Positions 2,132 to 4,492 are shown, counted from the first letter of the stretch. The stretch: DNA of 5,911 bases from a virus (IMGVR_UViG_2778261094_000002:1-5911), one strand, 5' to 3'. The notes: a model not told the origin generated them from the letters alone. A program made the numbers and translations.

Positions 2132-2335
2132 TTACGGTGCTGTTTTAAGTCCTGCCGGGATTTCGTTATTATCCATGTGAATAACTTTATCGACCGGATA
2201 ACAGTTACCGGGAATTTTCTGTTCCGCTGCGGCAACCATGCATTCTTTCATTGAGCCGTATACGCCAGTAACCATGTCAACCGGTTCACCGGAAACAAGA
2301 AAAACCGTCAGAACAAGTGCAAATGTAGTATTCAT
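2132..2335 (-). CDS. Small protein with N-terminal hydrophobic segment (signal peptide or membrane anchor), 67 aa, in the position RacC occupies in Rac; a longer alternative start exists at 2389 (85 aa)
   Basis: Minus-strand ORF MNTTFALVLTVFLVSGEPVDMVTGVYGSMKECMVAAAEQKIPGNCYPVDKVIHMDNNEIPAGLKTAP, stop TAA at 2134..2132. ATG at 2335..2333 overlaps the upstream gene's TGA (2334..2332) in an ATGA arrangement, indicating translational coupling. AAGGA lies about 9 nt upstream. The longer ORF from 2389 would overlap the upstream gene by 58 nt and has a poorer RBS spacing. Confidence 0.5.
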   Translation of the reverse strand: MNTTFALVLTVFLVSGEPVDMVTGVYGSMKECMVAAAEQKIPGNCYPVDKVIHMDNNEIPAGLKTAP

Positions 2336-2520
2336 TGCCAGCATCCTTTTTGCATCAGGCGTAAACGGGCCAGCATTGAAACAATGCATATTTTATTTAA
2401 TAGCTCCCGTTCTTGTTTTCTCTTGTTAATGGCATCTTCAGTAAATACTGGGTTACTGATAGTGACACCAATTTCAAAACAACCTTCAGACGTATTAACG
2501 TTTGGTAATAACGTTTCCAT
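2332..2520 (-). CDS. Small Cys-containing protein, 62 aa, in the position YdaE occupies in Rac; the ORF track's longer version starts at 2592
   Basis: Minus-strand ORF METLLPNVNTSEGCFEIGVTISNPVFTEDAINKRKQERELLNKICIVSMLARLRLMQKGCWQ. ATG at 2520..2518 is preceded by GAGGA with 7-nt spacing. Stop TGA overlaps the start of the downstream gene. Confidence 0.45.
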   Translation of the reverse strand: METLLPNVNTSEGCFEIGVTISNPVFTEDAINKRKQERELLNKICIVSMLARLRLMQKGCWQ

Positions 2521-3049
2521 TATCGCGTCCTCAACAATGAATTTTGTGATGCGGCGCCTGGTGCCTCCAGGTGACGTTAACCAGTAAACCATTAACGCCG
2601 GATTGTTAGTTGATGTCTGTTACGCAAGTAAAAGACCGCTTGTTTTAACTGTTCCGCGTGCGCTGAGCCGCATTCACCGCATCACAAAATTCACTTTAAA
2701 AGGGGCGGGTATCACGGGAAAAACAAAACGAATACCCGCCAAAAGGTAATCAACATGGGTTGTTGTAGCGGAGTTGTCACTCAGGCGTATGGTCAACCTG
2801 ACAACCCGGTGTCCTCAACGGGGAAGGAATAACCCCGCCATACTTACCGCCGCGCCATTTCGCGGAGTGCCACAACCGGAAGCGCACGGTCGACGAAAAT
2901 TTAACGACAGGCTATCTATGAACCAGCAACCTCGCCGTGCGCTTTCGCGTTATGCTCTGACTTTTCAGAGAAATATCCTTTCAGTAAACTGTCAGTGCCG
3001 GATGTTCACCCGTGGAGAACTCCTTAATTACCAACCCTCAGGAGGGTGA

Positions 3050-3283
3050 ATGTTAAAATCAACTCTTATTGCTAAATGCCTTTATCAAAATCGCATGGTA
3101 AGCAGCATTTCAATAGGCGAGTCTGCAGTTAAAAGTATTTTCGAAGAGTACTTTTCCGGGCATGATTTTAATAAATGGAATACCAAATTACCGCCAGCAG
3201 TTTCAACGCGTATTCTGAAAGCAACTGAAAGAGCAAGTACAATTCGCGTTAACTATTTCATTAAAGATTTGTGGGATCTTTGA
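3050..3283 (+). CDS. Hypothetical 77-aa protein, AT-rich, lysine-rich; transcribed opposite to the leftward operon
   Basis: ATG at 3050 preceded by AGGAGGG (3040-3046). Translation MLKSTLIAKCLYQNRMVSSISIGESAVKSIFEEYFSGHDFNKWNTKLPPAVSTRILKATERASTIRVNYFIKDLWDL, stop TGA at 3281-3283. Codon usage is AT-biased relative to the flanking genes. No recognisable family. Confidence 0.5.
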   Translation: MLKSTLIAKCLYQNRMVSSISIGESAVKSIFEEYFSGHDFNKWNTKLPPAVSTRILKATERASTIRVNYFIKDLWDL

Positions 3284-3668
3284 TATCCACAGAGCCTAAA
3301 GTATGTGCATATGGATGTGCTATTGTGCGCCCTCGCAGATTTGCATCATTTTCTAAATTCACTGAACGAAACAGGGCATCAACAAGGCTCTGTACAATGC
3401 AAAGGCAATCGAAGACTGTCGCCGTTTCTGTTTTGATTGATGAAAGAACATGGCCATTCACGCAAACAGAAATTACCCGTTTATTAACATCGCTTTCCTG
3501 CTTTTGATTATCAGAACCATATAGCCCAGAAAAAGCATTGCGCACATTACGAACCATATTATCGATGGTTTCTTTTTTGGTGTATGCCGGGTCAATTTTC
3601 ACCAGACTATCACCGAGAGTCGTTGCAGCAATTGTCTGGATTTCTTTTGGTAAATCTTTAAATTCCAT
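3261..3668 (-). CDS. Hypothetical 135-aa protein
   Basis: ATG at 3668..3666 with GAGG 6 nt upstream; stop TAA at 3263..3261. Translation MEFKDLPKEIQTIAATTLGDSLVKIDPAYTKKETIDNMVRNVRNAFSGLYGSDNQKQESDVNKRVISVCVNGHVLSSIKTETATVFDCLCIVQSLVDALFRSVNLENDANLRGRTIAHPYAHTLGSVDIKDPTNL has protein-like composition and no predicted TM segment. No family recognised. Its 3' end overlaps the plus-strand 77-aa ORF by 23 bp. Confidence 0.6.
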   Translation of the reverse strand: MEFKDLPKEIQTIAATTLGDSLVKIDPAYTKKETIDNMVRNVRNAFSGLYGSDNQKQESDVNKRVISVCVNGHVLSSIKTETATVFDCLCIVQSLVDALFRSVNLENDANLRGRTIAHPYAHTLGSVDIKDPTNL

Positions 3669-4305: not shown

Positions 4306-4401
4306 GTTCTTACGCCTCGGGCTGGCTACTTAACCCCTGACCACTGCCGGGTAACTCGAAGTATTGCCCTGCGTTCTGTGGGGCGGGGTGGGTATGTTGT
4401 T

Positions 4402-4430
4402 ATGGTAACAAGAGTTACCATTGAAGTCAA
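4402..4430 (-). promoter_or_regulatory. PL-like leftward early promoter with embedded operator palindrome (OL)
   Basis: Minus-strand reading: TTGACT (4430..4425), 17-bp spacer, TGT-TACCAT extended -10 (4410..4402). The perfect palindrome GGTAAC-aaga-GTTACC (4404-4419) lies between -35 and -10. Further GTAAC/GTTAC-like half-sites occur at 4351-4355 and 4437-4441. Confidence 0.4.
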
Positions 4431-4462
4431 TATGATGTTACAAAAGGTACGCTTAGGGGTGT

Positions 4463-4487
4463 AAAAAACCCGCAATGAATGCGGGTT
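4463..4487 (-). terminator. Rho-independent terminator of the repressor gene
   Basis: Minus-strand reading, 5 nt after the repressor TAA stop: AACCCGCA-TTCAT-TGCGGGTT followed by TTTT (GC-rich 8-bp stem at 4467-4474 / 4480-4487, 5-nt loop, six consecutive T including the stem end). Confidence 0.65.
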
Positions 4488-4492
4488 CTGAC

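Follow-up and report, generated by a model that had tools for sequence, protein, structure and literature searches.

Why does a gene-dense phage operon contain 529 nt that seem to encode nothing? The stretch in question occupies positions 2521-3049 of a viral DNA of 5,911 nt, here called the window, by which we mean the whole stretch of DNA that was analysed. An earlier interpretation made from the DNA letters alone (the sequence-only reading) had assigned the operon to a Rac-type prophage, in which kilR would be expected at this place, and had proposed that the gene is absent, decayed or replaced by functions at the RNA level. It had described the minus strand as having no stop-free run above about 47 codons, and indeed we measure 46 codons for the longest one, against 73 ± 21 codons in mononucleotide shuffles of the stretch, 5% of which are equally short. 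Minus-strand ORFs within 2521-3049 reach 40 aa at most. The two plus-strand ORFs that it had listed, of 25 and 91 codons, were also found where it had placed them (Table 1).

The genes on either side of the stretch are not those of Rac. A copy of the window with 100% identity is found in E. coli FDAARGOS_1077, and the host prophage is lambdoid and integrated beside yccA. Downstream of the gene for a LexA-family repressor, a leftward operon comprises ydfA, ydfB, ydfC, a 135-aa ORF, the spacer considered here, dicB, and the genes for a DUF1482 protein, an exonuclease, a DUF4224 protein and an integrase. The gene starting at 2520 had been taken to be ydaE-like, at the head of a ydaE-racC-recE series, but according to Pfam and to the PGAP annotation it is dicB, and its downstream neighbour is by Pfam a ydfD-like DUF1482 gene and not racC. 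The operon thus reads as the early-left dicBF operon of a Qin-type prophage rather than of Rac; true Rac-type gene order was seen in two other loci, L135 and L204. Two genes between ydfC and the spacer are extra in comparison to K-12 Qin, namely the 135-aa ORF (phrog_1363; 3261-3668, on the operon strand, which is the minus strand) and the 77-aa ORF on the plus strand (phrog_10348). Their 3' ends overlap by 23 bp, and the pair is also found in an O157:H7 copy (L003).

We compared the spacer to that of K-12 Qin in a three-way alignment of the window, K-12 and an O157 copy, together with a 30-nt identity profile. Positions 2762-3014 match the K-12 ydfC-dicF interval at ~95%, and the match ends exactly where dicF starts. 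In K-12, the Rfam DicF model scores 76.7 bits at the segment that aligns with 2702-2744 of the window, and the MG1655 record (NC_000913.3) annotates DicF as a 53-nt ncRNA. The same model (RF00039, gathering score 48 bits) gave no match in the whole window at E≤1, and none in 2680-2790 even at E≤10; two loci that carry the same class of sequence as the window (class C, see below), L004 and L063, were likewise missed. Nothing can be concluded from PGAP records that show no ncRNA feature here: dicF is annotated in NC_000913.3 but not in the K-12-like record 9A. The dicB leader holds a second hypervariable island (Table 1), of which phage contigs carry many unrelated versions that are unlinked to the cassette class. 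At ~3006 on the minus strand the window is also without a 29-nt segment, GGTGGAGTGCGTGCGCCGGACACGGGTGC, that is present in K-12 and O157 and bordered by CACGGGTG, a short direct repeat; the segment does occur in some genomes that are nearly identical in other respects (930-nt vs 901-nt matches).

Table 1. Positions in the window of the features discussed in the text.
Feature	Position	Strand	Basis or remark
dicB, 62-aa cell-division inhibitor	2332-2520	-	Pfam DicB PF05358 full length, E = 3e-40; PGAP annotation in identical genomes
dicB Shine-Dalgarno GAGGA	2528-2532	-	7 nt ahead of ATG; identical in K-12
Structured dicB leader with long-range stem	2536-2695	-	arms 2538-2554 / 2677-2693, 17 bp perfect, 21 bp with wobbles
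Segment compared with K-12	2545-2694		identity ~93%, second variable island excepted
Second hypervariable island, in dicB leader	2605-2640	-	7/30 identity to K-12; flanks 90-97%
Position of K-12 72-nt 3' end	2683		inside arm 2677-2693 of the long stem
Segment compared with K-12	2695-2774		identity about 55%
sRNA cassette at the DicF/KilS position, window allele (class C)	2698-2768	-	K-12 homology falls to ~55% exactly here
Parts of the class C cassette	5' tail 2759 to 2741; hairpin; U-run 2701 to 2698	-	5' tail CCCAUGUUGAUUACCUUUU
Position of K-12 DicF 3' end	2702		last C ahead of U-run
Terminator-type hairpin	2704-2740	-	9-bp stem GGCGGGUAU/AUACCCGCC, two inner pairs in predicted fold, U/C-rich loop
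Position of K-12 DicF 5' end	2744		U-run just before hairpin
25-codon ORF, ATG start, MGCCSGVVTQAYGQPDNPVSSTGKE, judged non-gene	2755-2832	+	TAA truncation in siblings
Conserved structured leader, homologous to Qin ydfC-dicF spacer	2769-3014	-	93-100% identity to K-12
91-aa ORF, TTG start, judged non-gene	2774-3049	+	no Pfam/PHROG match; unannotated in most genomes
Segment compared with K-12	2775-2985		identity 93-100%
Hairpin in conserved leader, putative RNase III site for long precursor	2877-2889 / 2935-2947	-	inverted-repeat search
Position of K-12 190-nt 5' end	2881		inside repeat arm 2877-2889
77-aa gene bordering the spacer	3050-3283	+	phrog_10348, E = 2.7e-46; PGAP: hypothetical protein

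DicF, a textbook example of a prophage sRNA, couples induction of the prophage to cell division in the host, to sugar metabolism and to the virulence of EHEC. In K-12 it is released from a polycistronic transcript: its 3' end arises by Rho-independent termination at its own hairpin or by RNase III cleavage 19 nt further on (72-nt form), and its 5' end by RNase E (53-nt form) or by RNase III 137 nt upstream (190-nt form) (PMC10448788, PMC9438474). The terminator gives rise to a 1,146-nt ydfABC-dicF transcript, beside read-through into dicB-ydfD (PMC10448788). We transferred these processing coordinates to the window through the alignment (Table 1), and both published RNase III sites map into inverted repeats. 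One of these, the 17-bp perfect long-range repeat 2538-2554 / 2677-2693, is a stronger feature than the hairpin noticed in the sequence-only reading, which had missed this repeat. In the predicted fold of the spacer, the dicB leader lies inside this long stem as far as the GAGGA Shine-Dalgarno sequence, and the 21-bp duplex of the stem is retained in most of ~115 related loci. True covariation in the long stems was not found among these ~115 loci; since only switches between wobble and Watson-Crick pairs occur, we regard the duplex as conserved rather than covariation-proven. The leader gives a sub-threshold partial match to Rfam STnc100 (RF02076) at 2543-2691 on the minus strand, with 29.9 bits compared to a gathering score of 47, and the Rac leader scores 28 bits. 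We regard the dicB leader as a related structured leader that falls below the curated STnc100 cut-off.

By analogy, biogenesis of the RNA of the window would follow the K-12 route, for which we propose the following steps. The hairpin at 2704-2740 would stop part of the leftward transcription, as suggested by its homology with K-12. RNase III would trim the 3' end of the upstream transcript (ydfABC, the 135-aa ORF and the leader) in the 2877-2947 hairpin, and RNase E would trim nearer to the cassette, so that a short Hfq-type RNA could be released. Read-through transcripts would be cut by RNase III in the 2538-2554 / 2677-2693 stem, which would free the dicB mRNA. Such an RNA would resemble 3'UTR and intra-operon Hfq sRNAs such as SroC, CpxQ and SdhX, which are excised from a polycistronic mRNA and end at an internal intrinsic terminator with a U-rich stretch before it (PMC9438474). 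Those are core-genome RNAs with conserved seeds, whereas the RNA body at this slot is hypervariable and mosaic between prophages and the scaffold is conserved.

The hairpin itself had been noticed in the sequence-only reading as a 9-bp inverted repeat with a T-run on the minus side. Both are present: the arms GGCGGGTAT (2704-2712) and ATACCCGCC (2732-2740) are 100% complementary with 19 nt between them, and 3' of the repeat the minus strand continues as CC-UUUU-AAAG. The hairpin folds with -18 to -20 kcal/mol (z = -3.8 to -4.5), and not one of 200 shuffles is as stable. We estimate that 529 nt would contain a perfect 9-bp repeat with closely spaced arms by chance with a probability of ~5%, and therefore the hairpin alone carries little weight; we judge it to be real because it coincides exactly in position with the DicF intrinsic terminator of K-12 Qin. 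The proposal of a terminator or attenuator on the leftward transcript gains from this alignment, but the genes behind it are dicB and, by Pfam, DUF1482 instead of the ydaE and racC that had been supposed. A simple consensus terminator scan did not call the hairpin because its loop is longer than 8 nt (12-19 nt) and is followed by only 4 U, and termination may be inefficient. Sibling alleles and K-12 DicF have 5 U in the corresponding run; the window has CCCCUUUU where the sibling alleles have CCCUUUUU.

Together with DicF, the window allele shares the operon, the position between the ydfC-side leader and dicB, the GGCGG/CCGCC hairpin base with its U-run, both stems with mapped K-12 RNase III sites, and residual similarity within the hairpin (UAU..GUUUU...CCGUGA). 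It differs in that the 5' seed of DicF, UUUCUGGUGACG, is replaced or deleted, a loss that can be read directly from the alignments, and in its upper stem and loop, such that the RNA itself is ~55% identical. An RNase E 5' end placed by positional homology would leave a tail of 4 nt only.

We therefore read the stretch as an untranslated, structured spacer of a Qin-type dicBF operon that is transcribed leftward, and its hairpin with the U-run as the terminator and 3' module of an sRNA encoded at this slot. We estimate the probability of this reading at roughly 0.78. Confidence in the identity of the spacer and in its non-coding nature is high, and the earlier suggestion of a non-coding stretch with functions at the RNA level is supported.

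How variable is the slot? With the 18-nt flank just 3' of the hairpin we retrieved 120 IMG/VR contigs and classified the 75 nt upstream by motif. There are four 5' tails (A, the DicF seed; B, GCUGUGUG; C, that of the window; D, CCAUGUGUAGU) and five hairpin tops, which occur in eight classified combinations (A/1 75 times, B/2 17, C/3 6, D/1 3, B/4 3, A/5 2, C/4 2 and B/1 2), beside three unclassified loci. All tail/top classes fold, with -12 to -22 kcal/mol, on a GGCGG...CCGCC base followed by U4-6, and pairing-preserving changes in the base include GGUGG/CCACC. The sequence-only reading had suggested looking for conservation of the hairpin in related prophages; every allele class keeps its base and the U-run. 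The Rfam DicF model recognises only alleles with hairpin top 1. Sibling class C alleles differ in the length of the U/C run in the loop. The tail of the window is also joined to two other hairpin tops (L085, L054, L133, L134), and therefore recombination near UUUUGGCGG is indicated. We take the site for a cassette that recombines while the processing scaffold around it is conserved.

The window allele and its sub-variants are present in 157-205 of 5426 complete E. coli genomes (about 3-4%), and the exact 24-nt class C pattern was found in none of 185,579 species-representative genomes. True matches to the 18-nt flank come from Escherichia and Shigella only; the other ~50 stretches with the flank pattern belong to unrelated organisms and look like chance matches. 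In Shigella flexneri CP182556.1 (L179), the DicF 5' seed is kept, the 3' half is scrambled and the terminator hairpin is lost, which we take to be real decay at the slot. The only record of the phage collection with the window allele is PP818812.1 (5994-6062, 92.8% identity). It is labelled ‘Actinobacillus phage vB_Apl-pPE4’, an odd host label for an Escherichia-type lambdoid module, and a hypothetical protein is annotated over the RNA.

The cassette has a second relative that already bears a name. Directly upstream of kilR in the Rac prophage of MG1655, the 98-nt sRNA kilS (b4833, in the kilR 5' UTR) is annotated; letter for letter, it is allele B/2. The 3' flank of kilS and the leader beyond it can be aligned with the corresponding parts of dicF-dicB and the window. 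KilS was predicted from RNA-RNA interaction data of Hfq RIL-seq, with yncL as a RIL-seq partner, and Northern blots of wild-type and Δhfq strains served to check its expression (Bar et al. 2021, PMC8175672); the paper makes no mention of DicF. KilS and the window RNA are placed alike with respect to the conserved leader downstream (UUUUUAAAGUGAAUUUUGUGAUGCGGUGAAUGCGG...), agree in hairpin base and U-run, and both precede the gene of a division inhibitor. On the other hand, the 5' tail of KilS, GCUGUGUGUAGUCC, and its hairpin top are unrelated to those of the window apart from the stem base, its upstream leader is unrelated as well, KilS may have a promoter of its own, and the gene that follows is kilR instead of dicB. 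On the Rfam DicF model KilS reaches 39 bits, under the cut-off of 48, while the window allele does not score at all. As KilS shows, expression and association with Hfq are possible for non-DicF alleles at the slot.

In Rac, kilR occupies the position of dicB and not that of the spacer. A further arrangement is seen in the Rac-like prophage of E. coli M9 (L135, NZ_CP010196.1, 2650-3180), where the tail of the window, joined to hairpin top 4, precedes kil-ydaE-recE-recT; the name ‘cell division protein FtsZ’ that PGAP gives to the kil product is erroneous. Because kilS lies at the same position, its flank aligns and the M9 arrangement exists, we consider DicF, KilS and the window RNA to be positional alleles ahead of a division-inhibitor gene, either dicB or kil.

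Does the window allele act on the targets of DicF? DicF uses its 5' end for pairing with xylR, and ftsZ and pykA are bound by its 3' part (PMC5069750). We computed the gain in energy upon co-folding with the translation start regions (-60 to +45) of 132 K-12 genes, a method that rests on the energy model only. As a control, DicF ranked xylR first, ftsZ fourth (-14.1 kcal/mol) and pykA 24th of the 132. For the window allele, ftsZ came 20th with -6.2 kcal/mol (~1 sd from the mean), xylR 115th and pykA 98th, and the mean binding of start regions was -3.6 kcal/mol compared to -6.6 for DicF. Since the window allele lacks the 5' seed of DicF and has a different hairpin top, altered targets are expected: xylR and pykA would not be regulated, and ftsZ at most weakly. 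The loss of ftsZ control is a prediction of the model, in which the O157 allele A/5 retains xylR and loses ftsZ, and this fits a modular picture.

Co-folding yielded no robust or conserved target for the window allele. Addition of 120 further start regions gave one strong match, zapC, at rank 1 of 77 with 22 intermolecular pairs over -17 to +7. However, zapC ranks first for DicF too, sibling class C alleles reach only -6.6 and -7.3 kcal/mol, and shuffled sRNAs bind better still, so that we regard the site as purine-rich and ‘sticky’ and do not credit it as a target. ZapC is a division protein associated with FtsZ, and canonical DicF is predicted to pair with the zapC ribosome-binding site (L136 30893-30997) at -14.4 kcal/mol, compared to -14.1 for ftsZ (rank 1 of 77); we note the DicF-zapC pairing as a lead only. 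With regard to a possible porin or receptor target, ompF, ompC and ompA showed no pairing with the window allele. A scan of the sRNA along 24 kb of the prophage that carries it brought up nothing beyond the self-antisense match; the next best, a weak one in 4351-4450 of the window near the early-left promoter (-16.4 kcal/mol, ~3.3 sd), was discounted because it is expected by chance among 1588 scanned segments. The method is blind to some real pairs, because the known KilS partner yncL was not recovered (rank 13 of 43). Two other procedures were given up: duplex folding of whole sRNAs with start regions produced implausibly long, loop-ridden duplexes and was replaced by the co-folding gain, and an annotation-free, seed-filtered scan, in which 250 kb of K-12 were probed with the tail and the loop, was discarded because it missed the DicF controls.

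These results bear on what the class C allele does. We tentatively propose, at odds somewhat short of even, that a single recombining sRNA cassette has DicF, KilS and the window RNA as its alleles, with interchangeable 5' tails and hairpin tops set in a conserved scaffold of RNase III stems, terminator base and division-inhibitor leader, and that class C is a functional Hfq sRNA whose regulon is distinct from those of DicF and KilS. Confidence in a trans-acting role of the class C allele is moderate to low. Alternatively, the allele could be a degenerate DicF without seeds, of which the hairpin remains only as a leaky intra-operon terminator or stability hairpin that sets the dose of dicB and the exonuclease, with no action in trans. 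Such a remnant would fit the deleted or replaced 5' seed, the 4-nt tail left by the homologous 5' end, the generally weak predicted binding with loss of the DicF targets and no conserved target in their place, and the varying U/C-run length in the loop of sibling alleles. Nevertheless, the hairpin, the U-rich stretch ahead of it and the U-run are all kept, whereas the decayed Shigella locus loses them; the allele persists in its 157-205 genomes with several sub-variants; its tail has been recombined with other hairpin tops, as expected of working modules; and KilS, the other non-DicF allele, was recovered both by Hfq RIL-seq and on Northern blots. We consider the remnant explanation rather unlikely.

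Could the stretch instead serve mainly as promoter and 5' region of the rightward 77-aa gene? The gene abuts it, has a strong AGGAGG 6 nt before its ATG and belongs to a recurrent phage family, phrog_10348. K-12 Qin has the spacer without this gene, however, no sigma-70-like promoter site was found on the plus strand in 2400-3049, and at most the last ~35-100 bp could serve the purpose, a use that is compatible with the structured-spacer reading. As a principal function we regard it as very unlikely.

Still more improbable is a small protein encoded antisense to the operon by one of the plus-strand ORFs. The 25-codon ORF had been put forward with an AAGG 8 nt upstream of its ATG, and its last 24 residues, but no others, match the C-terminus of phrog_3651 (162 aa, unknown function, E = 2e-7). 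Against a gene, an in-frame TAA cuts the ORF to 9 codons in 4 (L131-L134) of the 7 sibling loci that retain the ATG, and K-12 carries the same TAA and is without the ATG. This ATG falls in the variable cassette and is missing outside the class C tail type, and the AAGG-N8-ATG appearance arises because it is the reverse complement of the 5' tail of the RNA. The PHROG match is confined to the nucleotide-conserved leader, with a stop-rich frame upstream, and no promoter-like site precedes the ORFs on the plus strand. The 91-aa ORF had already been likened to translated non-coding DNA, and its lack of a Pfam or PHROG family agrees with that.

Finally, the stretch might be the pseudogene scar left by a protein gene, kilR or some other early one, that has decayed or been replaced, as kil lies directly downstream of the equivalent spacer in Rac-like prophages. 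But kilR there holds the dicB position, and the fold of the entire 529-nt spacer is much more stable than that of shuffles (z = -5.2). Because the homologous Qin spacer, experimentally non-coding, is equally ORF-free and the six intergenic ORFs of the spacer have no Pfam match at E≤1, no kilR is missing or decayed here. The scar is the least probable of all these explanations.

The main survey of DicF counted only copies with > 99% identity and stated that dicF-hybridising sequences ‘were not fully characterized’ (PMC5069750). Our literature search on DicF variants, DicF-like RNAs, copies and paralogs found no description of alleles at the slot, although an earlier one is possible, nor did the literature searched contain a paper linking DicF and KilS. 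Faubladier and Bouche (1994) and Melson and Kendall (2019) may describe dicF-like variants. On our reading, the locus is a known element, a dicBF spacer with an sRNA-terminator, in a sequence variant that the literature searched does not describe and that falls outside the Rfam DicF model. It should be annotated as a dicB-operon spacer with a DicF/KilS-like ncRNA rather than as a Rac kilR gap or a small-ORF locus. The comparison shows that DicF and the separately named KilS share one slot, which can also accommodate RNAs that escape Rfam and other standard models. If the variants are active, the host post-transcriptional network would differ from strain to strain with the prophages present, and reports of dicF presence or absence in genome comparisons would be misleading. 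If the proposal of a recombining cassette is true, lambdoid prophages would retarget host genes by module swapping.

Two further observations concern other RNA elements of the early-left region. In some phage contigs, L006 (4747-5234) and also L092 and L054, Rfam IsrK and C4 antisense RNA genes follow within ~250-450 nt after the cassette, which makes three small-RNA genes in a row. In the window, a strong hairpin at 4455-4489, AACCCGCATTCATTGCGGGTT, has a T6 run behind it on the minus strand and lies just past the stop codon of the LexA-family repressor gene, of which it is probably the terminator; it also gives a weak match of 23 bits to Rfam Pseudomonas P9. Just to the left of it, at ~4403-4420, lie the operator-like palindromes TGGTAACAAGAGTTACCA.
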